Source of the DNA: a virus
Taxonomy: Duplodnaviria > Caudoviricetes
Length of the DNA: 64,000 nt
Strand: one strand, 5' to 3'
Virus record (IMG/VR): IMGVR_UViG_3300031992_004562
Span: 47,626 to 111,625 of that record
The position numbers and the translations under genes were made by a program. This document shows positions 7,116 to 43,676 of the stretch, piece after piece (within the stretch, counting starts at the first letter, position 1; each line of letters opens with the position of its first letter). Below the pieces are notes generated by a model. The model made no database searches. It had not been told where the DNA came from and was given only the letters and a program-made list of their open reading frames with translations.

Positions 7116-7183
7116 AATTCAATATATTTATTAAACAAAATAACAATTTATTCATATAATTTAAAAATAATAGAGTGCTTTAA

Positions 7184-18634: not shown

Positions 18635-19726
18635 TCAAAAATCTTCAACATCATCAAGAGCCAATTGAATTCCTCTATTAACGGCTTCTAATAATGAATT
18701 TTCAAATTTTAAATTTAATATAAAGCTTTCAGATAATTTTTCTATATTTTCTTTTGAAAATGCTACAAATTTTTCAACAATTGAATTTACAAAATTTCTA
18801 TCAAGCCATGGATATTTTTCATATAAATATGTTGTGTTTATCCAGGTAAATGGCTATTTTTCGCCTGATGGTGTTATTGCAGTTCCTGTCATATATAATA
18901 TATTTTCAAGTGCAAATTCATTTTCAGATTTAGATTTATCTAATAATTGTTGTAAATCTGCAAGAAATTCTTTTTCGTCATCTGCAATTTCCTATATTGC
19001 CTCTTTAACTCTATGAACAGAATATTCTGTTCTTAAAAATCTTAATACATAATTATTAAGTTTTTCAGCTGTACCATCTTCATCTATAAAATACCATTCA
19101 GGCCTATCAGCTAATGATAAATCTGTAAATTGTCTAAATGCCATTTTATTTGGATCATTTGGATCTCTAAATAAACCACTTTGACCAATAGATTGTGTAT
19201 ATTTTTTAGTATGTGTTCTATTTTCATCTTTTGTTCTAGATGCATTTAAACCTTGATATTCTGGTTTACGTCTCCAATCATTTTCTGGATAATCGGTTTC
19301 AGCTTTGCCAAAACCATGTCTTAGACGAATATTCTATTCTTCATCACCCCATTCATGATATTTTGATAGAAATCTGCCATTTTGCATCCAACGGATAACT
19401 GTACGGCTAATCTTAATAATATGTACATCACCTTCAATATCCATTGGTGCAGAATTTCTTTGTCCTGCCAACACCTATGAATATTTTTCAGAATCTTTAA
19501 AAGATTGTAAACGACTTTTAAATCTTGGAGAATTTTCTAATTCTTTTCCAGAAAGATATCCAGTTAGTTTTTTATCATTTTCAATATTAACTTTCTTTCT
19601 TGAACGAGGCCCATATGATAATGCCCCATCATTTAAATAACCAATTGACACAAATAAATCATTTGGCAGTATGTTTTTTGTTAAAAATGGAATTATATCT
19701 TTACCAACTAATATACGTTCTTTCAT
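18635..19726 (-). CDS. Hypothetical protein with leader-A motif at its C-terminus, code 15
   Basis: 363 aa continuous frame with four TAG, ending LLEAVNRGIQLALDDVEDF-TGA. Confidence 0.82.
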
Positions 19727-19782
19727 ATATTTTTATACATTATATTCTTTTATTATTTATCATAATGTAATAAATATATTGA

Positions 19783-20736
19783 ATGGAAATAATTAATAAG
19801 AAAATAATAGAATCTGTTAATAGAGGCATATAGTTGGCATTAGATGATTTTGAAGATATTGATAATATATCATCTAATAAAAATGACATAGTGTCTTCTA
19901 GTAACTTTGATGAATATGTCAAATTTAGAAACATTATTAAAAAGATTTTAAATCATGATAGAGATCTTCCAAGAAAATTAGATGAAATTCGTGTATATAA
20001 AGAAATGATTAAATTACATGATGATTATGGTTTTCTTTATAAAGTTAATACATTAGATGAATTAAAATCTATTATTGAAAGATTTATAGATATTTGGCCA
20101 GTTGCCACAAATAATTTTAACTGGCTAGATGTTTCTTCGTTAACAAGTTTGCAATATGCATTTAGTTCAGCATCTATAAGAGATAAAATTGGCAAAGTAA
20201 TTATAGATGAATGGAATGTTTCTAATGTAAAAGATATTCAATTTATGGCATGGCAATGCGCATATTTTGAAGCAGATTTATCTAAATGGAATGTATCTAA
20301 TCTTGAATATGCAGGCGGTGCATTTTTAGGATGTAAAAAATTTAATTCAGACTTATCTAATTGGAATGTTTCAAATTTATATGATGCATCTTCAATGTTT
20401 TTATATTGTGATAATTTTAATTCTGATTTATCTAGATGGAATGTTTCTAATTTAGTAGATGCATCTTAGATGTTTAAAGAATGCAAAACATTTAATTCAG
20501 ATTTATCTAATTGGGATGTTAGTAATGTGCAAAATGCTAATATGATGTTTTATGATTGTGAAGCTTTTAATTAGGATTTGTCTAAATGGAATTTAGCAAA
20601 ATGCAATAATGGAAATAGAGATTAGTGGTTTAGATAGGTATTTGCATATACACCAATGGAACATGAATATGATTTATATCCAGATAAATTATTAACTGAT
20701 AATATGAGAATATAGGCTACAATGAAAAAGAAATGA
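19783..20736 (+). CDS. Leader A + DUF285/BspA-like leucine-rich repeat protein, code 15
   Basis: MEIINKKIIESVNRGI(Q)LALDDFED; FNSDLSNWNVSNL repeats; FN(TAG)DLSKWN = FNQDLSKWN. Confidence 0.88.
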
Positions 20737-21473
20737 AAAAATTTAATAAACATATATTAGAAGCAGTAAATAGAGGTATCTAGTTAGCTTTAGATGATTT
20801 TGAAGATATAGAAGATAATAATACTTTATCTTCAAAAAATGATGTTATAGATAGTGAAGATGTTATTAAAAACAAAATTGATTTATAGAATTTTGTTGAT
20901 CTTGGTCTACCATCTAAAACATTGTGGTATAAAAGAACATTAGGTGAAACTGATAATACTTTTGGTGAATGGTACGCATGGGGAGAAATAAAACCTAAAA
21001 ATGTATATGCTTGGCATAATTACAAATATGCAAAAAGAAATGAAGAGAATTTAACTAAATATTGCAATGATAAAGTTGATGGATATAAAGGATTTACAGA
21101 TAATAAAGAAACTTTAGATTTATGCGATGATATTGCATATTTAACAAATAAACATTTTAGAATTCCTTCAAGTAATGATTTTGAAGAATTATTAGATAAT
21201 TGTAACTATGAATGGATAACTGGTGATACAATTGGAATCATATTTAGGTCAAGAAAGAATGGAAATGAATTATTTTTTCCTGCATCTGGATTTATTAACG
21301 ATTATGGATAGGTTGCAGAACGTGGAAAAACTGGATTATTTTGGGCAAATAATATTTCCAGTGACGCATTGCCAGAATAGGCGTATTGCTTAAGTATTGA
21401 ACAGGCAAGTAATGCAGTTATAATGGCAGATAGATGTTTAGGCTTATAGATTAAACCAATATGGGTATGGTAA
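20733..21473 (+). CDS. Leader A + DUF1566/FISUMP-like protein, code 15
   Basis: MKKFNKHILEAVNRGI(Q)LALDDFED..VDLGLPSKTLW..YAWGE..FFPASG; ATGA overlap with previous gene. Confidence 0.87.
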
Positions 21474-22258
21474 AGAATAATAAAATATTAGAAGCCATTA
21501 ATAGAGGTATATAGTTGGCACTTGATGATTTTGAAGATATAGAGAATAATAATTCTGTATCTCAATTAAGTGATGTCATAAATAGTGATGATGTAATTAA
21601 AAATAAGATAGAATTTAATAAATTCTTTGTTGATATGGGATTTCCATCTGGAACTATATGGGCTAAATACAATTTAGGTGTTAATCCATATAGAGGACTA
21701 TTTATACCTCAATCTTATTATGGTAATTATTATGCATGGGGCGAAACTAAACCAAAAAATAATTATGATTGGAGAAATTATAAATTCATTTCTAGTATAA
21801 GTCCTCTTAAATTTAAAAAATATAATGGTAACAGAAAAGATAGAGAAACTCTTGATTTGCGTGATGATGCGGCATTTGTTAATAACCCATATTCAAATAT
21901 CAATGTTAGAGTGTGCCTTCCAACACCTGAACAAATTATTGAATTACAAATACATACAGATAGAGAACTTGTACATAATTACAAAGGTATTGCAGGATTA
22001 AATGTTGTAATTTTAACATCTAGATGCAATGGTAAAAAATTGATGTTTCCTCTTGGAGGATTTAAAGATGAAGAACAAACGAAATATGTTGGTGAAACTG
22101 GTTTTATAATGTCAAAATATATGGATAAACAATATAATCATAGGGCATATGGAATTAGTTTTTAGATTAAATACACTGGAGGAAAACATTTGGATTTTAA
22201 ATTTGATTATATTGGGAAAAAGACTGGTGTAAATGTAAGACCAGTAATAATGAAATAA
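21467..22258 (+). CDS. Leader A + DUF1566/FISUMP-like protein, code 15
   Basis: MVKNNKILEAINRGI(Q)LALDDFED..VDMGFPSGTIW..YAWGE..GVNVRPV. Confidence 0.87.
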
Positions 22259-22286
22259 AAAGGACTCTAAATTATAGAGTCCTTTA
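22258..22286. terminator. Bidirectional terminator
   Basis: AAAGGACTCTA/TAGAGTCCTTT inverted repeat. Confidence 0.75.
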
Positions 22287-22289
22287 ATT

Positions 22290-23528
22290 TTATCGTCTAA
22301 CTGAACCAGAACTTCTAGAACCACCACTTGATCTTGAGCCTCCTGAATATCCACCACCTCTACTTGAACTTCCACTGCTTGGTCTTGAGCCACCATATGA
22401 ACCAGATGGTCTTGAAACTGAACCACTTGACCTATATGAAGACTGTGTAGGTGTACTTTGTCTAGTAGGCATACTAGTTGTTCGTGTTGAAGTAGATGAA
22501 CTTCTTTGAACAGTTGATGTTTGTGTAGTACGTGTAGGAGTGTCTGTTCTATTAATATTTGTATTTGACGTACGTGTAGGTTGTTGTATTCTTGAAGAAC
22601 TTTGAGTATTTGTACTTCTTTGTGTAACACCTGTACTTCTTTGTGTAGAAGTTGTCGATGTACGTTGTGTAGAATTTACAGATGTTCGTTGAGATTCTGC
22701 TGAACGTGTTGATACTGTATTCCTACTATCAAATGTTCTGGCTGAATTAAAATTAGGTTGCCTTGCTGAACCATCTCTATGGGATACACCTGTTCTCTTT
22801 AAATCACCTGCATTTCTATATCCAGTATTTCTTACACTAAATGAATTCGTTGGATGTGCTGTTGCATAATCTCTACGTGTTACTCCACTATGTATTGTAT
22901 TATATCCATGATGTGGATGGCGCCCATGATGGAATGAACAATAATGATGGTGATGATGGAATCTATAGCATCTATCCCAGTACCATCTATATGTGTAGCA
23001 AGGACGATAATACCACCATCTTGGATAATATCCCCAATACCAAGGAGATTCCCAACAATACCAATGTGATGACCAGAACCAATTATAAATTACAGGCTTA
23101 TAAATATATACCGGTTCAATAATATAATTTGTACCGTAGATATATTCATCACCAATAATTTGAACTGACACTTCTTGTGTCTGATTATCTTTTTCAACAT
23201 AGATAGATGCAACGTCTTGATATATGTCTTTTGCAAGAACAGCTTGAATAACAATTAATTTATTATCTGCTGTGCCTGCTTCAACAACTCTCAAATAATC
23301 AATTTGATTGTCACCATTCAGGTCAAGATTTGAAAATGCACTATCAGGATTATTAAGCATATTCTCAAATTGTTCTGTAGTACTTGCTTCTGCAAAAAGT
23401 TTAGCCACTACTCTAAGATCTAAACTTTGTGAAATGTCTTCACTATTAGCAGAAACGGTAATTGTCTCTTGTGCAAATGTTAATACTCCAATTAACATCA
23501 TTGCTAAATATAAAAATACTCGTTTCAT
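22290..23528 (-). CDS. Host-like (Bacteroidetes) secreted protein with EF-hand-like DLNGD motif and long S/T/R/G low-complexity tail
   Basis: Signal peptide MKRVFLYLAMMLIGVLTFA; DLNGDNQIDYL; W/Y/H-rich segment; no TAG. Confidence 0.8.
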   Translation of the reverse strand: MKRVFLYLAMMLIGVLTFAQETITVSANSEDISQSLDLRVVAKLFAEASTTEQFENMLNNPDSAFSNLDLNGDNQIDYLRVVEAGTADNKLIVIQAVLAKDIYQDVASIYVEKDNQTQEVSVQIIGDEYIYGTNYIIEPVYIYKPVIYNWFWSSHWYCWESPWYWGYYPRWWYYRPCYTYRWYWDRCYRFHHHHHYCSFHHGRHPHHGYNTIHSGVTRRDYATAHPTNSFSVRNTGYRNAGDLKRTGVSHRDGSARQPNFNSARTFDSRNTVSTRSAESQRTSVNSTQRTSTTSTQRSTGVTQRSTNTQSSSRIQQPTRTSNTNINRTDTPTRTTQTSTVQRSSSTSTRTTSMPTRQSTPTQSSYRSSGSVSRPSGSYGGSRPSSGSSSRGGGYSGGSRSSGGSRSSGSVRR

Positions 23529-23540
23529 AATAGTTAGGAT

Positions 23541-23819
23541 TTAATTTTTTAATATATTTTCTGGTATGTTTAACAATTTAATTAATTTTTTAGGCGCCGG
23601 ATGATAACAATCTGATTGATCGACTGTTAATGTTCCACCTTCCCAATCATCCCATTGTTGAGAAATTATTGGTTTACCACGTTTTTTAAAATACACATTC
23701 CACCATTGTTTATATGGTATTGGCTTATATGTACGATAATCATAATCTTCTGCCAATAATACGGCTGTGCCAAAATTATCTATAACAACAGTGTTCTTTT
23801 TAAAAATGTAATGTCCCAT
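23541..23819 (-). CDS. Hypothetical protein
   Basis: First ORF after early-promoter motif. Confidence 0.7.
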   Translation of the reverse strand: MGHYIFKKNTVVIDNFGTAVLLAEDYDYRTYKPIPYKQWWNVYFKKRGKPIISQQWDDWEGGTLTVDQSDCYHPAPKKLIKLLNIPENILKN

Positions 23820-23836
23820 ATATTTTAATGTTTTAA

Positions 23837-23880
23837 CGATACAAAATTAATATTTTTATTTTATAATAAAAAATAGAAGT
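23837..23880 (-). promoter_or_regulatory. Early promoter motif copy
   Basis: ACTTCTATTTTTTATTATAAAATAAAAATATTAATTTTGTATCG on minus strand. Confidence 0.7.
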
Positions 23881-23915
23881 TAATTTTTGATTATTTATTG
23901 TTTATAATTATATAC

Positions 23916-23933
23916 TACAAAAAGTGTGCCAAA
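23916..23933 (-). promoter_or_regulatory. Sigma-54 (RpoN)-like -24/-12 promoter
   Basis: TTTGGCACACTTTTTGTA: TGGCAC-N5-TTG(T)A with GG-N10-G spacing. Confidence 0.5.
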
Positions 23934-24028
23934 CTTTTTTGAATATTAATAAGAGATAATAAAATATTAAAAAATGAAAACTAGAACCTAAGCTCTAGTT
24001 TTCAAATAAAAATATTTAATATGAATTA

Positions 24029-24790
24029 TTAATTTACATTTTGATATGCAACTACAATAACTGTATAATATGAAGTAGTAGTTTGTTGTCCACCTTTAAC
24101 TTCTCTACTTATATATGATTGATTGCTAATTGTTTTAAATTGTAAAGCATATTTGTTAATTGCATCTTCACCATAAAGATGTTTTATATTATTTTCTGCA
24201 TCTTCCTGAGCCAATCTTTTAGCCTCACTTTCTGTATTTGCACAACCTACACCAGATGCAGCATAACGATTATCACTATCATCATCTAATGCATATAAAA
24301 CTTTAACAAAATCTGCTGCAGCTTGTTTTTTAACAGCTTCTAATTCTTCACCACTTTGTATTCCTCTTGCATGTGTCATATTAACAGTAGATGTTACCAT
24401 ACTATTACGAAGACTATCATCAAATTGTTGATTTGTTATTGCATTTGCAGAAAATGTACTTGATAATAAAGTTATTGTTGTTAAAACACCATATAAAGTT
24501 TTTTGACCTTTAGATGCAGCTTTCTTTACTACATCTGCAATAAATTTGCAAGATTTATTTCCAAATTTATTTTTAACTTTATTTAATGTTTTATTTAATG
24601 GCTCTTTAAATTTCTAAAAAATGTTTGTAGATTCACCTTCATTTAATGCAAATATATATGATAAACCATATTCTTCTAATAAATTTGCAGAAGATGATTC
24701 TTTATCCATTTCAGTTAAAGCTTTTTTGACTTCTTTGGCAACAGAAGTCATAATGCTTTCATATAATGCTTTTTTATTATAATTTTTCAT
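24029..24790 (-). CDS. Leader B + internal signal-like segment + LPP20-like domain, code 15
   Basis: MKNYNKKALYESIMTSVAKEVKKALTE; one TAG; KTLYGVLTTITLLSSTFSANA; YAASGVG..EAKRLAQEDA. Confidence 0.8.
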
Positions 24791-24807
24791 AATTAAAAAT
24801 TAATTTA

Positions 24808-25137
24808 TTATTCTTCATTATCATTATCAAATTCTTCTTCTGTCTCATCAAATGGGCCTTCCATTCCTGACAATATATCAGCAGCTTCACCTAAGCCATC
24901 TGCTAATTCACGAACATAATCAGATAATTCTTCATATGTTTCACAACTTGTGAAAGCACCACGACGGCATGATTCGACTTCATACTTCAAATCATAGATT
25001 TTATCTAAGACTTCAGTTAAGAAATCTAATTCATTCTCATCCCATCCATCCATTGTAGATTCATTAAGAGCTTTTTTAACATGGGTTGATACCGCTTTCA
25101 TAACGCTCTCAAATATTTTTTTATTTTCTCTAGTCAT
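24808..25137 (-). CDS. Leader B + acidic hypothetical domain
   Basis: MTRENKKIFESVMKAVSTHVKKALNE; ATG at 25137. Confidence 0.8.
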   Translation of the reverse strand: MTRENKKIFESVMKAVSTHVKKALNESTMDGWDENELDFLTEVLDKIYDLKYEVESCRRGAFTSCETYEELSDYVRELADGLGEAADILSGMEGPFDETEEEFDNDNEE

Positions 25138-25163
25138 AATTATATAAAAATATCTTTTTATTT

Positions 25164-25844
25164 TCAATCTTCACCTCTTTCCCATTGTTCATCTTTCCAA
25201 CGATCATACGCATCATCGTCATCATCATTGAAATATTCTTCATCGTAGTTATTATCTACGATTTCACTGATTTCATCAACGAAACAATCATCTAATTTAT
25301 TTTTAACAATTTCTTCTTTTGTTAAAACTGTATGATTATTATTGACATCTACGACATCTATTTCAACACCGGTAATAGTAATAGTATCAACTTCTCCATA
25401 TCCTCCCTCTGGTGGTTGATAGTAGTCGCCTGGACGATAAGGAACATAATCCCATGTAACATCAAAATCAACATTAATAGTTATATCTGAACATGGTACC
25501 TATACATAAATTGTTCCACCGCTCATTTCTGTATCTGAATCATAAATATAATTTTCATAATAAGAATATGCATTTGGATAGAATTTCTTATATTGTCTAG
25601 CCATTATAGACCAATCTATATTAGCAACAAAATTAATCAATTCATCTCTTGACATATTTTCAGCCAAAACATATTTTTCACCATCTCTGATTGTTTTGAA
25701 ATTTGCTGGCAATTCGTCAAAATGAATTGCATCCAATTCGGCTTCATGATAGCTAGAATATATTTTTTCTTCTTCCAATAATGCCTTTTTAACTTCTTTT
25801 GCTACAGCTGACATTATTGATTCATATAGTTCTTTTTTATTCAC
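25164..25844 (-). CDS. Leader B + acidic hypothetical domain, code 15
   Basis: GTG start, NKKELYESIMSAVAKEVKKALLE; one TAG at 25500-25502; ends TGA. Confidence 0.78.
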
Positions 25845-25883
25845 AATAATCCTATATTTGTTTTTATATTTATTTTTGTAAAA

Positions 25884-25920
25884 AAACATTTTTGGGTTAC
25901 TATGTTATAATTAATAAATA
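25884..25920 (+). promoter_or_regulatory. Tandem middle (AAAC-N18-TATAAT) and late (AATAAATA) promoter motifs upstream of suppressor tRNA
   Basis: AAAC 25884-87, TATAAT 25906-11, AATAAATA 25913-20. Confidence 0.55.
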
Positions 25921-25930
25921 TTAAAAATAT

Positions 25931-26003
25931 TGCCCCATTGCATAATGGCAGTGCGCATGACTCTAAATCATGGTCAGTCTCGGTTCGATTCCGAGTGGGG
26001 CTG
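25931..26003 (+). tRNA. Amber suppressor tRNA (anticodon CUA), probably Gln-charged; CCA not encoded
   Basis: Cloverleaf: GCCCCA/TGGGGC acceptor, GCAT/GTGC D-arm, CATGA-CTCTAAA-TCATG anticodon arm, CTCGG-TTCGATT-CCGAG T-arm, G73. Confidence 0.93.
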
Positions 26004-26052
26004 CAAATAAAACAGATAAATTTTTATATTTATCTGTTTTAATTTTTAATAA

Positions 26053-26358
26053 ATGCAATTAACAAAAGAAAATATAGATACATATATTGGAGAAATATTT
26101 AGAAATCGTGGATATATGTCAACATCATCACAAAAAAATTCTCCATGGGGCAAAAGATGGAATGAATGGGAATTGTTAATTCATATTACGGGTGACACGC
26201 AATATATAGATATTAATAAGGTATTTACACCTGACAAGATAGATTGTGAAGAACAAAATGAATTATTACTTCCACGAAATACTTTACTTCGTTTAGATAG
26301 TTATAAAATAATGCGAAATAAGGAAAAAACTTATTTGCTTGAGATGTCTATAATTTAA
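26053..26358 (+). pseudogene. C-terminal fragment of a VIP2/Alt-like ADP-ribosyltransferase
   Basis: GYMSTS and EQNELLLPRNT motifs present; N-terminal Arg motif absent; in-frame TAA TAA just upstream. Confidence 0.6.
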
Positions 26359-26375
26359 AACAAAGTTTAATTTTA

Positions 26376-26741
26376 ATGATAACTTTTGAATATAATGGAA
26401 AAATTTATAAACCTTCAAATCTTGAAAATAAATTGAAAAAGTTAGGTATTACAATAAATGATGTAAAGATTATTGATGATACTAAAACAAATGCAGAAAA
26501 AGAAAGAGAAGAAAGAAGCCAACAAATTTCTAATAATGAAGAAACTGTTGATGTTTATTGGGATAATAGATGTAAAGGCTGGTTTCTCGTAGATAGAAGA
26601 TTTCCATATTCAACAGATTGGGGAATAAGATTTTTTCAAGAAATTGAAAATGGAAGATATAAATTAGTTCAACATGATGTAAATAAAAATAATTTATATG
26701 AGTTTTTTGAAGAAAATTTTAAAAAGGTTATAGCTATTTGA
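26376..26741 (+). CDS. Hypothetical protein
   Basis: 121 aa ORF. Confidence 0.7.
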   Translation: MITFEYNGKIYKPSNLENKLKKLGITINDVKIIDDTKTNAEKEREERSQQISNNEETVDVYWDNRCKGWFLVDRRFPYSTDWGIRFFQEIENGRYKLVQHDVNKNNLYEFFEENFKKVIAI

Positions 26742-26791
26742 AGCAAATAAACTTTTTAATAATAAATAACATATAATAATTGATAATAGAA

Positions 26792-26866
26792 AATTCTTCT
26801 ATGACATCGGGATTGATTTAGATCCTTTGAGAATTGTTAAAGATTCAAAGATGCCGTAGAGAAGTT
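26792..26866 (+). ncRNA. Candidate structured 5' leader RNA (three-way junction)
   Basis: TCTATGACATC/GATGCCGTAGA outer stem enclosing GGGATT/GATCCT and TTTGA/TCAAA hairpins. Confidence 0.4.
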
Positions 26867-26889
26867 ATAAAAATAAATTTAAATGACTT

Positions 26890-27780
26890 ATGAAAAAGAC
26901 TAATTATTCAAACATTGCAGCTATTGCTGTTGACAAATCTCTCTTAAAAGAGTATCAAACTTCTTACGGAAGAACAGTTTATCTTGACAAAGATTCCGAA
27001 TTCCAAATTAAATTATTTAATCCTTATTCATTTACTGTTGGTGCTGAAATTATCATCAATGGTAAATCTCTTGGTGACACATTGATTATTAAACCTGGCC
27101 AATTAATTTGGTTAGAGCGTTATTTTAATGAAGCACGCAAATTCAGATTTGATGTTTATGAGGTTGACGCACAGGCAGAAGAAGTAAAACAAGCCATTAA
27201 AAACAATGGTGATATTGTAATAAAGTTTTATAAAGAAAAGGAACATGTAAGACGAGGTCTTGATATTTGGGCATCTAATGCACCAGTATATAATGGGTAT
27301 AATATTAATGGTACTACATATACTAATGGAATACCAGATATTTGTAAAAATATGACATTTAGTGCAACTGATATGGTTAACACTACATATACAAATAATG
27401 TTCCAGATGGTGCTCTTAGATGTGAACTTTCTGCATCAAGTTGTAATTATTCAAATTCACAACCAATTTCCCAACCTATAAGTAAAGGATTTGGTAATTT
27501 AAATTTAAATAAATTGCGTAGTGCTACAATGGATAGTGCTACAATGGAAACTGGCCGAGTAGAAAAAGGTGGTTATTCTGATCAAAGATTTATGACAGTA
27601 GATATTGATTTAGAATCTTGGCCATTTGTAACTGAAGAAATTAAGTTATTGCCTAAATCTCAAAAACCAGTTTATAAAGAGGACTTGGAAAAATTATATT
27701 GCCCACAATGCGGTCGTAAAGTTAAAACAAAATTTAAATATTGTCCATTCTGTGGTGGAAAACTTTAGGAAATATTCTAA
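26890..27780 (+). CDS. Hypothetical protein with C-terminal double zinc ribbon (ends 27768 if TAG is read as stop)
   Basis: CPQCG..CPFCGG; TAG followed by GAA ATA TTC TAA. Confidence 0.8.
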
Positions 27781-27831
27781 AAATATTTAAAATATTATAA
27801 ACAAAAATAGAGGCGGGTAATAAAATTATCA

Positions 27832-27875
27832 GCTTCTATTTTTCTATTTAAGATAAAAGTATTAATTTTGTAACG
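27832..27875 (+). promoter_or_regulatory. Early promoter motif copy, overlapping the upstream terminator hairpin
   Basis: GCTTCTATTTTTCTATTTAAGATAAAAGTATTAATTTTGTAACG. Confidence 0.7.
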
Positions 27876-27893
27876 AAATTAAAAGTAAAATAT

Positions 27894-28301
27894 ATGAACA
27901 AGTTACATTGTATTTATATTGATAGTGACTATCCAAGTCTTGGAAGGATGATTGAAAAGTTTGACAAAGGAATACTTCGTCCAGATGATGGTACTTTCAA
28001 TATTCCTTCTCAATTACATGGATTAAATGACGAATACTTATGGATTTTGTTGAATGGACGAATGATTCACATATTCATTGTAGATTGGGTTGACGAAGAA
28101 ACACATCAACATAGTCAATATACTAATGGAGAAGATATTGAAATCCTTAAAAGATTTGCATATGATCCTAATGCAGAATTTGCTGAAAAACTTGGTAGAT
28201 TATCATGTCTGGTAACGCAGTCTGTTATAAATCTTGATTCAATTGACAAAGAACGTGTAAAAACATTTTGGAATGACTATTATAATCATAATTTAAAATA
28301 A
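27894..28301 (+). CDS. Hypothetical protein
   Basis: First ORF after early promoter. Confidence 0.72.
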   Translation: MNKLHCIYIDSDYPSLGRMIEKFDKGILRPDDGTFNIPSQLHGLNDEYLWILLNGRMIHIFIVDWVDEETHQHSQYTNGEDIEILKRFAYDPNAEFAEKLGRLSCLVTQSVINLDSIDKERVKTFWNDYYNHNLK

Positions 28302-28308
28302 AAATAAT

Positions 28309-28593
28309 ATGGCTACAAAATTTCAAAAAGTATGTAATAAATTGAATAAGATTCTTGAGAATCGTCCTGAGAATCGTGAAGAATTTATTAATATGATCAA
28401 TGATATAATTGAAAAAGAAGTATTTAATAAGGGAGGTGATTTATATTGGGGTAGAGAATTATTCATTGATTCGAATTTTGACACTGAAGAGTGTAGAAAA
28501 AAGATACATCGAACTGATGTGATGTTTAGAGATACTAGAGATCCGGTTGAACATCCTGGAATTACACTTTGTTATAAATCAGAAGAAGCATAA
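28309..28593 (+). CDS. Hypothetical protein
   Basis: ORF in operon. Confidence 0.7.
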   Translation: MATKFQKVCNKLNKILENRPENREEFINMINDIIEKEVFNKGGDLYWGRELFIDSNFDTEECRKKIHRTDVMFRDTRDPVEHPGITLCYKSEEA

Positions 28594-28597
28594 GAAT

Positions 28598-28843
28598 ATG
28601 AAAACATTTGATTGGAAAAATGCAAAAGAGGAATTACCAAAAGAGGCATGTCATTATCCTGAGATTTGGTGTTCTCAACAAGTTTTAACGAGAAAAAAGT
28701 TTAAAACCAAAGAAGGCATTGAACGATATCATTATGAGGTTTGTATGTATAATTTTGATCATGGCGGAAGTTGGATGATTCTTAATAATCAGTTTAAATT
28801 CTATGAACCAGACGAATGGTGTGAACTTGAAATTTTTGCATAA
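28598..28843 (+). CDS. DUF551-like small protein
   Basis: MKTFDWKNAKEELP...PDEWCEL pattern; ATG at 28598. Confidence 0.55.
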   Translation: MKTFDWKNAKEELPKEACHYPEIWCSQQVLTRKKFKTKEGIERYHYEVCMYNFDHGGSWMILNNQFKFYEPDEWCELEIFA

Positions 28844-28860
28844 AAATAAAATAAACTAAT

Positions 28861-30168
28861 ATGAAAAAGGAAACATTTGACGAAGTTAAAAAATCTGGTA
28901 GATTGATTTATCAATATATTAGAGGTTCTCATGCATATGGACTTAATATTGAGACTTCTGATATTGATACTGGCGGTGTGTACATCACTACAAATGATGT
29001 TCTTCTTGGACTTCGTTCTGGTTATTGCGAGCAAATTGCAGATGCAAAGAATGATAATGTTTGGTATGAAGTTGGCCGTTTCCTTGAATTGTTAATGGCA
29101 TCTAATCCAAATATGTTGGAAGCATTATTTGTTCCTGAGAGATGTATTATTTACAAACATCCTGTAATGGATTATATTCTTGAGAACAAACATAAGTTTT
29201 TAACTAAAAAGGCATTTAATGCATTGGTTGGCTATTCAATTCAACAAATTGCCAAGGCCCGTGGTCTTAATAAGAAAATTGTTAAGCCGGTTAAGGTACG
29301 TAAAACACCTATTGATTTTTGCTATACCTTTAAAAATCAAGGTTCTGAGTCCGTAATGGAATTTTTGAATCGTCATGGTCTTAAACAAATCTATTGCGGT
29401 CTTGTGCATGTAGATAATATGGATCAGGCCTATGCAGCCTTTTATGACTGGGAACAACATATTCGTATGGAATGGAAAACCGCCGAGGAATTTGCAGATT
29501 TTCTTGTAGACGTAGTAATTAATGATAAAGAAAGTAAATTCATTGATAGCATTAAAGAAATGAATTATGACTTATGGTTCCAATTTATGCCACATATCAA
29601 ACATTGGACTGACGCTCAATACATTAGTGATGCTAGAGAACAATGGATTCGAAGGTATAATGAAATCAAACCCAAAGGCTATCATGGTATTCAAAAAGAA
29701 GATGGTTCTTCTAATGATGTACATCTTGATAGTGTAGTTAAAGGCGAAAAACCATTATTCCATCTTTTGTACAACAAAAATGGCTATGCATCTCATTGTC
29801 GAGAATATAAAGATTATAAAGACTGGGAGAAAAATCGTAACCAAGCACGTTATGAATCTAATCTTGATAAGAACTATGATTCTAAAAACATTATGCATTG
29901 TATTCGTCTTATTCAGATGGGCATTGAACTTGCAAAAACAGGTGAGCTTAATGTTGATAGAAGTGTAATGGGTGATAGAGAATTTCTGCTTGATGTTAGA
30001 AATCACAAATATGAATATGATTATTTGATTGATTACTGCGAACAGAAAAAAGCAGAAATGGATGAAGCCATTAAAACTACATCTCTTCCTGATGAAATTG
30101 ATAGGGAATTCGTAAATGAATTGCTATTAAGAGTACGAAAAGTATTTGATTATGCAGAAAATCGATAA
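28861..30168 (+). CDS. RlaP/YcgL-like nucleotidyltransferase (Pol-beta superfamily)
   Basis: RGSHAYGLNIETSDIDTGGVY, NPNMLEAL, YDSKNIMHCIRL. Confidence 0.88.
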   Translation: MKKETFDEVKKSGRLIYQYIRGSHAYGLNIETSDIDTGGVYITTNDVLLGLRSGYCEQIADAKNDNVWYEVGRFLELLMASNPNMLEALFVPERCIIYKHPVMDYILENKHKFLTKKAFNALVGYSIQQIAKARGLNKKIVKPVKVRKTPIDFCYTFKNQGSESVMEFLNRHGLKQIYCGLVHVDNMDQAYAAFYDWEQHIRMEWKTAEEFADFLVDVVINDKESKFIDSIKEMNYDLWFQFMPHIKHWTDAQYISDAREQWIRRYNEIKPKGYHGIQKEDGSSNDVHLDSVVKGEKPLFHLLYNKNGYASHCREYKDYKDWEKNRNQARYESNLDKNYDSKNIMHCIRLIQMGIELAKTGELNVDRSVMGDREFLLDVRNHKYEYDYLIDYCEQKKAEMDEAIKTTSLPDEIDREFVNELLLRVRKVFDYAENR

Positions 30169-30189
30169 GATTAATTTCTTATCGATTTT

Positions 30190-30981
30190 TTATTTCATTA
30201 AAACTGGTCTTACAAAAACACCATGTTCTCTTGCTATTGTATCAATACGTATTCTATTATCTTTTTCAATTTGCATACAATAATATAACCAATCAAACGC
30301 TTCAGGATATATATAACTTGTCATATAATATCCATAATTTAAATTTGTTAAGTTTACATTAATTGAATTTTCATTCTAAAGATACCCATGTATTGGAAAT
30401 ATTATTTCATTTCCATTTATTTTAGAGGTTAATTTACAAACATATAAATTTAAAACACCATTGTATGTATAATGAAAAGATTTTATTGTATTGGCTAATA
30501 ACTCTTCATATTGATCTATAGTTGGTACACAAATATTTACATGATATTTTTTATATAAATTGGAATTATATGCTGGGTCATCGCATAATTCTAATTTCAT
30601 TAATTTATCATCTTTATTATATTTAATATAATGATCTATAATATTTCTATTATTAATAGTTCGTTTTTCTAAAAATTTATACTATGTTGTTATTTTAGGT
30701 TTTAATTCACCAAATGCATAATAATCTCCATACCAATCAGCAGCTATTTCTAAATTATTAGGATTAACACCAAGATTATATTTTGACCACAACGTTTTAG
30801 ATGGAAGACCTAAATCGACAAAATTTTTCATTAACTCTATTTTATCATTGATGACATCATTTACATCTATAACATCATTACTCTAAGATATAGAATTATT
30901 ATCTTCCATATCTTGATAATCATCAAGTGCCAACTAAATACCTCTATTGACTGCCTCTAATATTTGTTTGTAATTTTGCAT
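30190..30981 (-). CDS. Leader A + DUF1566/FISUMP-like protein, code 15
   Basis: MQNYKQILEAVNRGI(Q)LALDDYQD..VDLGLPSKTLW..YYAFGE..GVFVRPV; 263 aa. Confidence 0.87.
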
Positions 30982-32438
30982 TATCTTAAAGTGTTGAATG
31001 ATTTTGCATAAACATTATATCCAAACATATATGCACAATTTGATGACGCATTAAATATTTCAAAAGGATTATTATAATTATCAATCACTATATCATTTGT
31101 AAGATTGATAGATGTATTACAGTTATTTAATATTGTAATATTTTTTACTGTGTTTATAGTGTTATTAAGTGTTAAATTATTTGATGAATTTATATATAAT
31201 TCATTAATATCATTAATATAAGTCGTAGCTGCAGCATTAATATTTATATTATTATCATTATTAATATACAAATTATTTAAAACAACACTATTTCCACTAA
31301 TATGAATATTATTATCATTATTTATTAGTGCATTTTTCATTACTGTAACAAGGCTGTCTGCATAAATAGTATTTTTATTTCCAATAATATTATTATTAAA
31401 CTATAATAATGGTGGATCTGCGTTTGTTTTTGTTCTTTTAATAAATATTGAACAATCATAACCAATATAATTATTTGATATTTCTCCACGACTAATAGCA
31501 TTATTTGAATAAAAAATTGGCATACATTTTGTTATATATGGGTTGGTTTTAATTATATTATTATAATAATCAACATTATTAAATGTTAAACGGAAACTAT
31601 CACCAGGATGTTTATATGTTAAATTACAAAAATCATATGGCGCTTCATTTCCACTACTATCTTTTAATAGTGTAATCTTTATTTCATATTTGGCGCCATT
31701 TTGAACTATATCATATGTTCCATAAACATTTAATGAATTTCCACTATGATCATACATATTATATAATTTACCATTAAATGTTGATGTATCATTTGCTTTA
31801 ACTAATAAACTTAATGAATTATAACTTAATGGACCACTAAAATTAAATCCAGGCATTGCCATACAACCATTAGTGTCTGTAGGTTCTGATTTATAATAAT
31901 CAGTAATTAAATAAAATTTATTTGGAATAAATGGTTTAGCATTTAATATCTATTTTAATGTTCCAACTGATGTATTTAACGCATCATATAATTTATTAAC
32001 ACTGCTATCTAACCCACCAATATGTTCATTAATATCATTAATTGACGCATTGAATAAATCACGTGTAGTATAATGTGTAAGAATTTCTGATAAATTATAG
32101 TTTTTAACATTTAACTATCTATATGTTGTTCCAGGAATAATATTTGTAGATATATTAGAAACAACAATATCTTCATTTGTATCTTTATCAACCAATTTAT
32201 AGTCTGGATATGGGCTTACTGAATATGTTGACCATGCTATAGATCCAATATTTGTACTTATATCAGGATCAATATTAACAGCAACTGGGAATCCAGAATA
32301 GACATACTTTCTTGCAATAATACTAGTATCATTATATTTACGTTCGACCTCATAATATAATGAAGTTAAATCTGTTGTTGGCGAAATATTAATACCACTG
32401 GCATCAATAAGTTGTAAACTTTTTGCGGTTGTTTGCAT
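30981..32438 (-). CDS. Putative tail fibre/structural protein with Asn-rich C-terminus, code 15
   Basis: Three ORF fragments in one frame joined through TAGs; paralog of 39336..40736. Confidence 0.72.
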
Positions 32439-32518
32439 AATTATAAAATTTAATCAATTTATTTCTATATTATTTATTTTTATTGAAACTTTTTATCATT
32501 TAAAGATATAATATTAGA

Positions 32519-32737
32519 ATGAAGAAATATCATGCACATAGAATAGATAAATGGATCTATGAATATAGAGGATTTAGAATTGAATGTGTGGGTTATTATA
32601 ATCCAGATCATAAAATTGCATGGGAAGCAGTTGACAAAGATGGATATGGATTTGCGCATGCATTTACATTAAAAGAATGTAAAAAGTGGGTAGATTATGA
32701 AATAGAAAAAAATCAAGAAAATAATGAAGAAAATTAA
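32519..32737 (+). CDS. Hypothetical protein
   Basis: ORF after AAAC-N17-TATAAT. Confidence 0.7.
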   Translation: MKKYHAHRIDKWIYEYRGFRIECVGYYNPDHKIAWEAVDKDGYGFAHAFTLKECKKWVDYEIEKNQENNEEN

Positions 32738-32780
32738 CTTCTATTTTTCTTATTAAAATAAAAATATTATTTTTGTAACA
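32737..32780 (+). promoter_or_regulatory. Early promoter motif copy
   Basis: ACTTCTATTTTTCTTATTAAAATAAAAATATTATTTTTGTAACA. Confidence 0.7.
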
Positions 32781-32800
32781 AATTTAAAAATTGAAATTAT

Positions 32801-34690
32801 ATGAATACACAACTTATCAAATTATTTAATGTAGCATTAGTAGAGAATGAAAAAATGTCTATGTCTCAATTTAAAGAGATTAATCAGCTTGCAGCTCAAG
32901 TTGGATATTTTGTTCATCCTGACGTATGTAATCAATCAGTTCTTGTTTTTTTAAAAGAGCAAGTCATCAATCCTAATGCAACATTTTATAAGAGTTGGAT
33001 TGATGTAACTTCTAAAACACGTTTGGAATTGTTGTTTGATCAACTTTTTCATTATCTTACAACATATGGAACAAACTTTGCACTTGGTAATGGCTACGTT
33101 CCTAATGATGGTGATAATGATGCACCGCTTTTGGATTATAGTTTATTTAAAACTATTATGCCAATCTCTCGTGAAGAACTTTATGATAAGTGTCTTGGTA
33201 TGCTTACATCAGGTGTGGCTCTTAAGAAAGAAACAATGAGAGCTTGTGCAGACTTTGTTATTGAAGAAGTTCATAATGGTGCATTAATCAACGTTGATGA
33301 AATTAAGAATCGTGAGGCATTGGTTTATATTTGTACTAGCCTTAATATTTGGCCATCTAATGCAATGAATTTGTTTAGAACACTTATGTATCTTACAACA
33401 GATGATACATTAATTGTTAATAATGATGCAACTATTAACAAGATTAAGAGAAGTTCACACCCATTTAATTTTAATAAGTTGGGTGAAAATGATTTGGTAC
33501 GTTTATCATCAATTTTCTTAAGATTTAAGAATTTATTCTTGGCATTTAAACATAATACAAATATTGATAATAAGTCTGTTATTAATAAGCTTCGTAAATT
33601 GGCAGTTACATATCATAGACCATTCATTGCAGGGTTTTGGCAAACTTTATTTTCTGAGCCAAAAATTGAAGAAGAGATTAAGCTTCATCTTGGTGAATTA
33701 ACAACTTTTAAAAAGGTTGCATTAATGCAAACATGCCTTGAGAGAATTGGTAATGTTGATAATAAAATTTATGTTATTAGAAATGGCAAAATTTTCTTCA
33801 AAGAGGGTTGTCAAGCACAAATGCCATATGTAACATATTATGTTCAAGTTTATAACATTTTAAGAGAAAGTGTTATTGAAACATTAAAAGCTAATTCTCA
33901 AAAGGAAGTAATTGTTGCAGATATTGAAACAGAAGGTGTTGAGCCTACTGTAACAACCATTAAGAAACCTAAAGTTATTAAAGTTTATAATGGTATGTCT
34001 GTAGCATTGCCAACTTCTGAAAAATCATATATTGGAAACTATCCATTTGGAACTTCATATGAACTTACAAATAATAATTTTGTAGCGTGTTATTGGAGAA
34101 ATGAGTGGGGAACACATGATTATGATTTATCTTTGACAGATGATCGTGGCGAAAAAATTGGCTGGAATTCAAGGTATTACAATGGTGCACAAAATATCAT
34201 TTATTCTGGTGATATGACTGAAGCACAACCTGAGGCATGTGAGGTTATCAAAATTTTTGATCCAACAGATTTTATGGCAGTAGTAAAAATCAACCAATAT
34301 AGAGGCAATGCAAAATCTAAATTTGAATTATTGTTTGGGCAAACAACTAAGGAATATGAAGCATATCAAAACTTCATGGTAGATCCAAATGAAATTAAAT
34401 TTAGAGCCACTATTGAGCATGAAGATAAGAAAGAACTTCAAATCGCATTAATTGCTAATAATAAAGTTACTCTTATGGAAGTGCATAGTGGAAATTCCAT
34501 TGTAAGCCGAGCATTTGGCAAGTCAAAAGAGTATATGAATGCGCTTGCAGATAAAACAAGATATTTTGTAGATGCAGCAGAACTTTTAAAAGAGGCTGGG
34601 TATGAAATTGTAGATGAAACATATACAGGTGATGTAGATGTTGACTTTGCAAATTTGGAAAAAGATTCATTGATTAAGCTTATGGCTTAA
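32801..34690 (+). CDS. Large hypothetical protein with TerD-like C-terminal region
   Basis: W..DYDLS..IGWN..YSGDMT pattern; no TAG. Confidence 0.65.
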   Translation: MNTQLIKLFNVALVENEKMSMSQFKEINQLAAQVGYFVHPDVCNQSVLVFLKEQVINPNATFYKSWIDVTSKTRLELLFDQLFHYLTTYGTNFALGNGYVPNDGDNDAPLLDYSLFKTIMPISREELYDKCLGMLTSGVALKKETMRACADFVIEEVHNGALINVDEIKNREALVYICTSLNIWPSNAMNLFRTLMYLTTDDTLIVNNDATINKIKRSSHPFNFNKLGENDLVRLSSIFLRFKNLFLAFKHNTNIDNKSVINKLRKLAVTYHRPFIAGFWQTLFSEPKIEEEIKLHLGELTTFKKVALMQTCLERIGNVDNKIYVIRNGKIFFKEGCQAQMPYVTYYVQVYNILRESVIETLKANSQKEVIVADIETEGVEPTVTTIKKPKVIKVYNGMSVALPTSEKSYIGNYPFGTSYELTNNNFVACYWRNEWGTHDYDLSLTDDRGEKIGWNSRYYNGAQNIIYSGDMTEAQPEACEVIKIFDPTDFMAVVKINQYRGNAKSKFELLFGQTTKEYEAYQNFMVDPNEIKFRATIEHEDKKELQIALIANNKVTLMEVHSGNSIVSRAFGKSKEYMNALADKTRYFVDAAELLKEAGYEIVDETYTGDVDVDFANLEKDSLIKLMA

Positions 34691-34734
34691 GCCTTGGACC
34701 TTGTACAATCAGAATTAGAAAATGAATAGTATGG

Positions 34735-34768
34735 AGAAACTTCGATGAGATATCGAGGTTTCTTTTTT
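34735..34768 (+). terminator. Intrinsic terminator
   Basis: AGAAACTTCGAT/ATCGAGGTTTCT followed by T run. Confidence 0.7.
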
Positions 34769-34784
34769 AATAAATATATTGAAT

Positions 34785-35783
34785 ATGAAAAGATTTAATA
34801 AGCAAATATTAGAAGCAATCAATAGGGGTGTTTAGTTGGCACTTGATGATTTTGATTATAATGAAGATATAACAAAATCTAAAACTGATATAATTAATAC
34901 TGAAGAATATGCATTTAGTATTATAAACACATTATATAAAAAACTAACATCTGAAATATTAACTGTTTAGGAATTAGACCGTTTGGTACAATATTATCAA
35001 ATAACAAAGCAAAAATATAAAGTTTATTCTAGACAAGAGCTAAAAAGAATTATTGATTATGTAATTGGTGTTTATCAATCTGGTGATTTTGTTAAAGGAC
35101 TTAATCCTGATATAAAAACATTAAATTGGATAGATGTTTCTGAAGTAAAATATATGGATGAACTATTTAAAGGATTATAGTTTACATCAGATATTTCTGA
35201 ATGGGATGTTTCTAATGTTTTAACAATGTCAAATATGTTTGAAAACGCTACATTCACTTCAGACATTTCAAAATGGAATGTTTCTAAAGTTACAACAATG
35301 TATGGAATGTTTTCAGCATGTAATTTTGAAAGTGAATTATCTGATTGGGATGTTTCCCATGTAACTGATATGGGACATATGTTTTTCATTTCACCATTTA
35401 ATGGAGATATTTCAAAATGGAATGTTAAAAATGTAACTAATATGCCATATATGTTTTATGCAGCTGTATATTTTAATCAACCAATTGGAAAATGGAATAT
35501 GTCCAAAGTTAATAATATTGATGGTATGTTTAATATGGCTAGTAGTTTTAATTAGGATATTTCTAAATGGAATATTTCTAATGTTAAATCTTCTGAGCTT
35601 GCGTTTAGCAAATCTGGATTTGATTAGGATTTATCTAAATGGGATGGCGGAAATTTATCAATGACTACATTTAAAGGCAGTAAGATTTCTTCAAATCATT
35701 TACCAAAGTTTTGGCAAGAAAATGAAATGAATTTAGATGGCAAAAGAATATTAAATACATATTTACCAAAAGATTGGAATTAA
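34785..35783 (+). CDS. Leader A + DUF285/BspA-like LRR protein, code 15
   Basis: MKRFNKQILEAINRGV(Q)LALDDFD; FNGDISKWNVKNV repeats; FN(TAG)DISKW. Confidence 0.88.
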
Positions 35784-36502
35784 TGAAAAATTATAATAAA
35801 ATATTAGAAGCCGTTCATCGTGGTATTTAGTTAGCACTCGATGATTTTGAAGATATAGAAGATAATAATTCTATATTTTAGAGTAATGATGTCATTGATA
35901 CAGATGATTATATAGATGATAGAGTTACATATAATAAATTATTAGAAAAGTTTTTTGATTAGATGAGTGATAGCTTAGTTATAAAAGTATCTAAAGATGA
36001 TTTAAAAAAACTTGCAAATTTATCCAAAAATCTTGGTATGAAATTTAAAGTTGAAGATAATAGATTTTTACAAGATATAATTAAAACTGTTTGTAGAATA
36101 GATAAGTCTGCAAATTTAAATTGGATTGACACATCAGAAGTAACCAATTTTGAAAATCTATTTAATATGACACTATTTCATGGTGATATTTCAGAATGGG
36201 ATACACATAATGTCAAAAACATGTATTCATGCTTTGCTTATTCTCAATTCAATGGCGATATATCAAGATGGGATGTATCAAATGTTGAAAATATGAATTG
36301 GATGTTTTAGGGTTCTTGGTTTAACAAACCAATTGAAAATTGGAATGTAGCTAAAGTAAAAAGTATGAATGGAATGTTTAGTGAATCGCATTTTAATTAG
36401 AATATATCTAAATGGAATGTTGCAAATTGTAAAGGTTATATAAAATTTAATAATAAAAGCACATTAAAAAAATCTAATATACCACCAAAATTTAGAAAAT
36501 GA
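35783..36502 (+). CDS. Leader A + DUF285/BspA-like LRR protein, code 15
   Basis: MKNYNKILEAVHRGI(Q)LALDDFED; FNGDISRWDVSNV; TAATG coupling to previous gene. Confidence 0.88.
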
Positions 36503-36504
36503 TT

Positions 36505-36909
36505 ATGGACTCAAATAAGAAAAAACAATTATATGAATAGATTATGACTTCAGTTTCTAAAGAAGTCAAAAAAGTTTTAAATGAAGCACGTGCTAAAAAA
36601 TATGAATTCTCTAAAAAAGATTTAGATGAAATCAAAAAGTATATACTAAATGATGAAGATTTTTATAAAACATATTGTCAATATGCAAATTTAGATAGAT
36701 ACGATTCATATGAAGAAGCAGTAGATGATGTAATGAATTTTTTAGAATAGGATGTGTATACGGGTGATCCAGAAGATGATTTAGTAGTCCATAAATGGTA
36801 TATGTTAGATGAGCCTGATTTAGGGTGTTCATGGATGCAATTAAAATCTGGCAAAATTGCAAATTTAGATAATATATATAAAGAATTCAAAGGAATGATT
36901 GAAGAATAA
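36505..36909 (+). CDS. Leader B + hypothetical domain, code 15
   Basis: MDSNKKKQLYE(Q)IMTSVSKEVKKVLNE; two TAG. Confidence 0.8.
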
Positions 36910-37007: not shown

Positions 37008-37376
37008 TTATTGGTTCATTACTATACCAAGGCATTTTAATTGATTTATTGAAATATTAATAACAGCATAATCAGATTTATTATAATGATCCTTTCCAAA
37101 ATCTACAGTTACATCAACATTAAACTTATCTCTATCATATGAAATATTTGATAAAATTGTGGTTTTAACTAATTCTGTAATTTCTTCTTGATTATAACTT
37201 AAATTAAAAATATATTTCTTAATATTTGCACCAAAATATGGAGCACCAAGAACATCACCATATGATGTTCCTAATATCATCTTTATCTATGATAATATTT
37301 GTTCCATTTCATTAGTTGTCTCAACTAATGGAACATATTGCTAATCTGATGCTAATCTATTATAAATATCAATCAT
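37008..37376 (-). CDS. Baseplate wedge subunit, T4 gp25-like, code 15
   Basis: ILS(Q)IKMILGTSYGDVLGAPYFGANIKKYIF; ATG 37376. Confidence 0.72.
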
Positions 37377-37377
37377 A

Positions 37378-43061: not shown

Positions 43062-43676
43062 TTATTTTTTACCTGGGCGAATATTATTTTCATTTAAGAA
43101 TTTTGTAAATCTACCTGCGTTAAAATTGCGTGCTTCTTGAACCTTTTTATTTTCTCCACAACTTTCGCCACATTCTTTTCCTTCACATTGGCAAGGATTT
43201 TTTCCACATTTATCACAAACTTTGCCTTCTTTACATTCTTTTCCTTCATTTTTAGATTGGTTAGCCTATTCAGGTTGTTTGCCTTTTTGTTCACCATATG
43301 CATTACGAACTTCTTTAGCAAGGAAATTTGCTGTATATTGAATATCTTCATTTTGCATTTCTGGCAATTTATCTTGAATAGTTTTATCGCATCTATTCAA
43401 AATAGCATTTGCCAATTGAACAATATTAGCAATTTTTACTGGGTTTTCACCAATTTTTTTGCCTTTAATAAGACGTCCCATACCACGAAGAACATTTGCC
43501 CAATCATCTGGATTGGCGTTCTTAACAATGTTTTGAATTTGTTTGTCTTTCTTTACTAATTCAAGAAGTTTATCTGCAACTTCTGTATCATCAAATTGAA
43601 AATCTTCATTAAGAGTTTTTTTCAATTCTTTAGCAACATTATCCATGATGCTTTCATATAATTTTTTCTTATTCAT
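43062..43676 (-). CDS. Leader B + Cys-rich (CDKCGKNPCQC) protein, code 15
   Basis: MNKKKLYESIMDNVAKELKKTLNE; one TAG; ends TAA 43062. Confidence 0.8.

Follow-up and report, generated by a model that had tools for sequence, protein, structure and literature searches.

Lak megaphages and crAss-like phages use genetic code 15, in which the amber codon TAG is read as Gln, for their late, structural and lysis genes, and the role proposed for this recoding is to delay the translation of late genes until the suppressor tRNA of the phage has been made (Borges et al., bioRxiv 10.1101/2021.08.26.457843; Crisci et al., PMC8346664). The DNA analysed here, a stretch of 64,000 nucleotides referred to as the window, covers bases 47626–111625 of a 111,625-bp viral contig (IMG/VR record IMGVR_UViG_3300031992_004562) and carries a family of genes that share an N-terminal leader with an in-frame TAG close to codon 16. 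Like the code-15 phages described so far, this phage has its TAGs within a subset of its genes, encodes a tRNA with the anticodon CUA, shows TAG opposite Gln in alignments, is AT-rich and comes from the animal gut; to the named Lak phages it is only distantly related, with 32% identity in one domain. Unlike the published work, in which ambers are considered gene by gene, we deal with one amber at a fixed residue of a leader that dozens of paralogs share, with the flanking codons as a yardstick for how well the amber persists. In the literature we found no account of this leader or of a positional bias of ambers. A first-pass annotation of the window had described the amber as fixed and kept by selection as a built-in stop, which would make the leader promoter, gate and tag in one. 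We favour a different reading, tentatively and at somewhat less than an even chance: a weakly favoured early amber that is inherited with the leader, and no fixed, obligatory gate or promoter-gate-tag unit.

TAG excess at one site of the leader

Seven genes of the window begin with the leader, and an eighth copy, which the first-pass annotation had overlooked, lies at the C-terminus of a further open reading frame (ORF). Codons are numbered from the nearest ATG.

19783–20736, plus strand: leader gene 1, leader helix in codons 1–26, C-terminus DUF285/PARCEL; TAG at 19831–19833 (codon 17), six TAGs in total
20733–21473, plus strand: leader gene 2, C-terminus of the C-type-lectin-like type of the family; TAG at 20781–20783 (codon 17)
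21461–22258, plus strand: leader gene 3; TAG at 21512–21514 (codon 18, from the first ATG), sole other TAG at about codon 233
30190–30981, minus strand: leader gene 4, structure modelled; TAG at 30934–30936 (codon 16)
34785–35783, plus strand: leader gene 5, C-terminus DUF285/PARCEL, upstream 15-mer at 34768–34782; TAG at 34833–34835 (codon 17)
35783–36502, plus strand: leader gene 6, C-terminus DUF285/PARCEL, adjoining a baseplate module at 37008–39303; TAG at 35828–35830 (codon 16)
6264–7115, minus strand: leader gene 7, weak FISUMP and Lcl_C matches, upstream 15-mer at 7119–7133; Lys AAA at 7068–7070, first TAG at codon 46
18635–19726, minus strand: ORF of 363 amino acids of no known family, its last 24 residues a leader copy with CAA at 18665–18667

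All six TAGs named in the first-pass annotation are present at codons 16–18, directly preceded by N/H-R-G-I/V and directly followed by L-A-L-D-D, and in the seventh copy the site codon is AAA and codon 46 is TAG, as described. Synonymous variation next to the site was also found as reported for Gly (GGC/GGT) and Ile (ATA/ATC/ATT, with one Val GTT); the GGG listed with it is no Gly codon here and probably represents the AGG-GGT of the copy at 34785. The start of gene 2 overlaps the stop of gene 1, so that the two form a tandem array. Each leader gene of the window holds one to five further in-frame TAGs. Upstream of the window, the remaining 47 kb of the contig hold two more leader copies, whose site codons are TAG and AGT (Ser), respectively.

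Copies elsewhere were sought with a degenerate DNA pattern that has NNN at the site codon, and the N-terminal module was found at 48 viral and more than 100 metagenomic loci. Related megaphage contigs of 204–380 kb are 41–76% complete by CheckV; four related contigs were compared, in full or lacking the last few hundred to few thousand bases. Because this 112-kb fragment (G000) carries 10 leader copies, a 380-kb contig (G001) 29 and a 204-kb contig (G003) 16, we estimate roughly 40 copies per genome. The region after residue 16 sets four leader types: type A, the type of this phage and of the 380-kb contig; B1 and C, with Gln-Leu at residues 16–17; and B2, with Lys-Phe (K-F). The codons at the site are as follows, first by contig and then by type over all sources with duplicates removed.

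G000: TAG 7, CAA 1, AAA 1, AGT 1
G001: TAG 19, CAA 1, CAG 2, AAA 6, AAG 1
G002: TAG 4, CAA 1
G004: TAG 1, CAA 3, TCT 1
G003: AAA 14, AAG 2
Type A: TAG 24, CAG 1, Lys 10 (36 copies)
Type B1: TAG 24, CAA 9, CAG 1
Type C: TAG 7, CAA 6 (earlier tally TAG 5/12)
Type B2: Lys 39; in all, 42 K-F copies (G003 and relatives) have Lys and no amber at the site

In the lineage of this phage 26 of the 30 Gln codons at the site are TAG (7/8 in G000, 19/22 in G001), as compared to a TAG share of 31% in late genes, 39% at the other positions of the family and 21% in fully conserved contexts. The comparison with the late-gene background that the first-pass annotation had proposed as a check comes out on its side for this lineage. 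For the window alone, six TAGs out of six against the family background of 39% give P ~0.004 by our own arithmetic, which takes the copies as independent. In the C-terminal domains of these paralogs, deep Gln columns hold a mixture of TAG and other codons (8/20, 4/9 and 7/12). Pooled over the three leader types with Gln at the site, TAG accounts for about 72% of Gln codons and CAA/CAG for about 28%, with CAA/CAG present in every type. The TAG excess is real in this lineage; in others it is smaller or missing. The amber is not fixed as had been claimed: besides the CAA/CAG share, Lys occupies the site in 16/16 copies of G003, and the C-terminal copy of the window has CAA.

Retention of TAG or inheritance with the leader

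Recent duplication, which the first-pass annotation had itself set against its claim, was ruled out as the cause of the TAG excess. The C-termini of the paralogs have a median identity of 35% (65% at most), and the flanking synonymous sites are scrambled, with a synonymous difference of 0.367 between TAG copies and 0.365 between TAG and non-TAG copies. Also rejected was a 'sticky' TAG, held in place by the two steps needed to reach CAA. Where Gln is conserved in recoded orthologs, P(TAG|TAG) is 0.43 and P(TAG|CAR), CAR standing for CAA or CAG, is 0.23, a memory of 0.20 as compared to 0.21 at four-fold sites; in fully conserved contexts the memory is 0.38 for TAG/CAR and 0.39 for four-fold sites.

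The explanation that survives best beside the one we favour is neutral hitch-hiking, in which a TAG-bearing leader haplotype was spread by gene conversion or leader swapping, TAG equals CAA in function, and the excess results from non-independent copies. It speaks for this explanation that leader types are genome-specific also where the C-termini are orthologous, a pattern that shows the leader to evolve in concert within a genome, with types swapped or homogenised. An example is the ortholog pair G002 41103 and G003 101535: both are 227 amino acids long and near-identical after residue 50, and they carry a Gln-Leu ('qNIKSKq') and a Lys-Phe ('QGQVNTKV') leader, respectively. The leaders of G003 are homogenised (ATT 16/16, TTA 15/16, synonymous difference 0.264 vs ~0.37 elsewhere), two-codon haplotypes CAA-CTA and AAA-CTT occur, and CTN follows TAG in 3/55 and non-TAG codons in 17/41 copies. 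Other Gln columns of the family are skewed as well, here to CAA (codon 6 in 20/23, column 51 in 15/18), and type C leaders are at the expected TAG level.

Rare flanking codons were taken as relics of the founder haplotype, and memory was compared by leader type:

Type A: flank memory 0.31, site memory 0.94, P<1e-4
Type B1: flank memory 0.26, site memory 0.52–0.63, P 0.0006–0.047
Type C: flank memory 0.38, site memory 0.24–0.42, not significant

In type A the site has kept far more founder signal than its flanks, and the only flanking codon associated with TAG is the one immediately after it. In addition, TAG and CAA turn over elsewhere as quickly as four-fold sites do, and the mixture of codons in the C-terminal Gln columns of these paralogs is likewise at odds with a passive origin of the excess. 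In view of these points we rate hitch-hiking as a serious but rather unlikely explanation. Two related candidates were discarded: a linked ATC-TAG haplotype, for which there is no association (22/55 vs 14/41), and GC-biased conversion, as the G+C content at third codon positions is raised only slightly near the site. TAG at the site is thus retained more often than expected from neutral TAG/CAA turnover. The earlier claim that selection keeps the TAG holds in so far as TAG is above background and outlasts its flanks in type A; it fails in that the codon is not fixed and type C shows no excess.

Ambers towards the 5' end of recoded genes

The position of ambers in other recoded genes was studied on the whole contig and the four related contigs, excluding the leader family, by shuffling the TAG label among the Gln codons within each gene. 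A TAG within the first 30 codons was observed in 178 genes vs 125±7 expected, and in 54 vs 40.6±4.0 when only starts conserved in orthologs were counted. The TAG share of Gln codons in recoded genes is 36–39% in codons 0–30 and 19% beyond codon 400, and it is lower at well-conserved Gln positions (21% vs 30%). Genome-wide, A precedes 57% of ambers vs 41% of CAA codons, and T follows ambers less often. The 5' bias agrees equally well with a gate and with a cost argument in which early failure is cheap. A wider claim, that selection positions ambers in these megaphages within the first 30–50 codons and that the codon-16 TAG is the clearest 'fail-early' gate against neutral TAG/CAA turnover, strikes us as conceivable and on present evidence doubtful.

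Frozen leader codons and RNA structure

Codons 6–9 of the leader form a frozen nucleotide block, AAATATTAGAAGC, for example at 19801–19812, 20751–20762 and 30955–30966 (minus strand), which occurs only in leaders. Codon 7 (Ile) is ATA in 86/87 and codon 8 (Leu) TTA in 83/85 copies over all lineages, at a usage of 36% for ATA and 65% for TTA; by lineage the pair ATA-TTA is found in 38/38, 35/35, 14/14 and 9–10/10. Gln codon 6 and column 51 show the preference for CAA given above, and at codons 11 and 15 rare codons ending in C are over-represented in leader types A, B1 and C, irrespective of the site codon. These features would suit a nucleotide-level signal unrelated to gating, such as a regulator binding site or a recombination core for leader swapping, that fixes the codons including TAG. 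This explanation is improbable, given that the frozen block is universal and the TAG lineage-specific. RNAalifold predicts no pairs around the amber, so that no conserved RNA structure was found there. A 7-bp hairpin, ATCTAGT/ACTAGAT, was tried and rejected: it is perfect in 9/19 copies of G001 and 0/7 copies of G000 and shows no covariation, with 81.5% of cells paired vs 81.6% in shuffles. Avoidance of the restriction-like site CAATTG, which CAA-TTG would create, was rejected too, as the site is not avoided (78 observed vs 63 expected). Neither RNA structure nor restriction-site avoidance accounts for the frozen codons or for TAG.

Gate and promoter

Upstream of three of the seven N-terminal window copies the same 15-mer is found:

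19768–19782, plus strand: 15-mer TAATAAATATATTGA, abutting the ATG and containing the late-type core ATAAATA
34768–34782, plus strand: the same 15-mer
7119–7133, minus strand: the same 15-mer

The other four copies lack it and start inside tandem arrays. ATAAATA is present upstream of 42% of TAG-containing genes vs 14% of TAG-free genes and is a general late-type signal, not a part of the cassette. A second N-terminal leader family (~MNKKKLYESIMSSVAKEVKKALNE) was noted at 24029–25889, 36499–36909 and 43062–43676 and in G001, with 18 members in G000 and G001 together; its C-termini are unrelated, it has no conserved amber, and some members start with MKNYNK as leader A does. The notion of promoter, gate and tag in one cannot be upheld with a 15-mer in front of three of seven copies only, a general ATAAATA and a second leader family without amber. 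Moreover, the leader amber is dispensable, as sister lineages carry CAA or Lys at the site and the family genes hold other ambers.

In its strong form, an amber fixed so that the cargo stays silent until the code switch, the gate hypothesis could draw on the at least one TAG present in all 60 family genes examined, on four genes in which the leader TAG is the only amber or the only early amber (the sole amber in 1/60) and on the late-type motif abutting the ATG of three window copies, but it is already contradicted by the sister lineages, which have no equivalent obligatory amber in the first few codons, and with Lys in all G003 and 10/36 type A copies, CAA/CAG in over a quarter of Gln copies, CAA in the C-terminal copy, four window copies without the motif and an amberless second leader family it is very improbable.

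Phage, genetic code and suppressor tRNA

The 111,625-bp contig is 22% complete by CheckV and has a G+C content of ~27%; CheckV estimates the total genome at ~500 kb. The same DNA was seen again in gut sequencing runs from sheep, bovine and goat. Many fragmented ORFs become full-length, conserved ORFs once TAG is read as Gln, and in ortholog alignments the residue facing masked TAG is Gln at 10.2–11.5 times expectation in both lineages compared. Reading TAG as Lys in this lineage was ruled out, as TAG faces Gln in both. The window encodes a matching tRNA, which is the decoder of the in-frame TAGs:

25931–26004, plus strand: suppressor tRNA with anticodon CUA (ARAGORN and Rfam tRNA, 51 bits)

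The segment upstream of the tRNA, 25900–25930 (TTAATAAATATTAAAAATA), holds an ATAAATA-type motif of the kind enriched before TAG-containing genes, and the suppressor tRNA and the TAG-containing genes could share one promoter class. Matches in the phage collection searched were restricted to Prevotella Lak megaphages, at 32% identity in a single domain. The source of the DNA is a ruminant megaphage with TAG read as Gln and probably a Lak-like one, because of the tRNA(CUA), the read-through ORFs, Gln opposite TAG, the Lak matches and the recurrence in ruminant guts.

The leader and its proteins

Gene 4 (30190–30981) was modelled with AlphaFold (mean predicted local distance difference test, pLDDT, 81). 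The model comprises a helix at residues 4–23, which is the leader, a disordered acidic linker (24–37), a second helix (40–51) and a C-type-lectin-like fold (52–263). The leader is an amphipathic N-terminal helix, in which the position of codon 16 tolerates Gln or Lys. Structural neighbours of modelled residues 46–263 are 8q4e (Z 7.5), 8oks (7.1), 2y3c (6.9), 1yu0 (6.8) and 5vf4 (6.3); by name, Lcl (its C-terminal domain), Bd2740 (a Bdellovibrio fibre tip), TvpA, Mtd and TaqVP head the list (Z 6.3–7.5), with many C-type lectins behind them. A Foldseek search of the PDB yielded no usable match. In its modelled fold the protein may be similar to the C-type-lectin adhesin domains of Mtd from Bordetella phage BPP-1, the diversity-generating retroelement (DGR) proteins TvpA and TaqVP, Legionella Lcl and Bdellovibrio fibre tips. 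The Z values of the model are middling, and the profile scores stay under the cut-offs: TIGR02145 (FISUMP) reaches 21.9 vs 41.65 and PF07603 (Lcl_C) 18 vs 34.9. DUF285/PARCEL is clearly present in three window genes (PF03382 with 157, 187 and 93 bits vs a cut-off of 25; TIGR02167 with 59 vs 30). The leader part of the family proteins has no profile match in Pfam, PHROGs or NCBIfam.

Going by the model and the profile matches and, for the late status, by the ATAAATA upstream of TAG-containing genes and a baseplate module that adjoins two of the family genes, we infer that the family consists of adhesin-like late proteins with C-termini of C-type-lectin fold or DUF285/PARCEL. The leader helix probably has a docking or assembly role for these putative adhesins on the virion. 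Conserved N-terminal anchor or targeting modules are known from other phage proteins, with branched receptor-binding proteins and their anchor domains as one example and the capsid targeting sequence of T4 as another. By analogy, the leader may be compared with such modules in its short conserved N-terminus, flexible linker, interchangeable C-termini, many paralogs and the vicinity of some copies to baseplate genes; it differs from them in that it also occurs at one C-terminus.

The ORF with this C-terminal copy (18635–19726) has no orthologs in the four related contigs, except for its 24-residue tag. Its leader copy (18638–18710) and the leader of gene 1 (19788–19860) form a 73-nt inverted repeat that is 73% complementary. 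Recombination between the two arms would invert ~1.1 kb and join the body of the ORF to the DUF285 domain. Directly upstream of gene 4 and on the same strand, positions 30981–32438 (minus) encode an Asn-rich repeat protein of 485 amino acids with three TAGs, which has no family match and looks like a fibre or spike protein. In one RNA-library run identical contigs were found over 20754–21048 and 21033–21828; this is no proof of transcription.

Weighing of the explanations and implications

The weakly favoured early amber to which we lean would work as follows. The amber would have spread across the paralogs along with the leader, and its persistence would reflect weak selection that favours an amber close to the very start of the ORF. 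If the message were read in the host code, or if suppression failed, release factor 1 (RF1) would free a peptide of 15 residues and not a long truncated protein, and the early amber could then be seen as an inexpensive variant, failing early, of the late-gene gating that has been put forward for recoded phages.

Several observations weigh against it. The K-F lineage (G003 and its relatives) has no amber at the site, in the 16 family genes of G003 the first amber lies at median codon 94, Lys is found in 10 of the 36 type A copies, and type C leaders are without TAG excess (7 TAG to 6 CAA). The binomial and likelihood tests assume independent copies, an assumption that concerted evolution of the leader undermines. 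Regarding the 5' bias, the pooled test counts orthologs more than once, and the enrichment per lineage is 1.2–1.3 fold and not significant alone. The leader TAG is followed by T and often preceded by C, which is atypical of the other ambers of this phage; the other frozen leader codons (6 and 7–8) leave room for a nucleotide-level constraint apart from gating, and the late-type motif is found upstream of the suppressor tRNA too.

That stop-codon recoding regulates late genes has so far been a hypothesis for Lak and crAss-like phages, resting on which genes contain ambers. The leader family is a ready test case for it: the same amber in the same protein context is replicated by nature dozens of times, with CAA and Lys alleles in the same and in sister genomes. 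Should the amber not be favoured, the family is an example of how a leader that evolves in concert can mimic selection on a codon. If an early amber is truly favoured, the position of ambers matters as well as their presence, and if ambers in these megaphages are indeed positioned by selection, comparative evidence from within genes would for the first time indicate that recoded stops are placed for the control of late proteins, beyond being tolerated.

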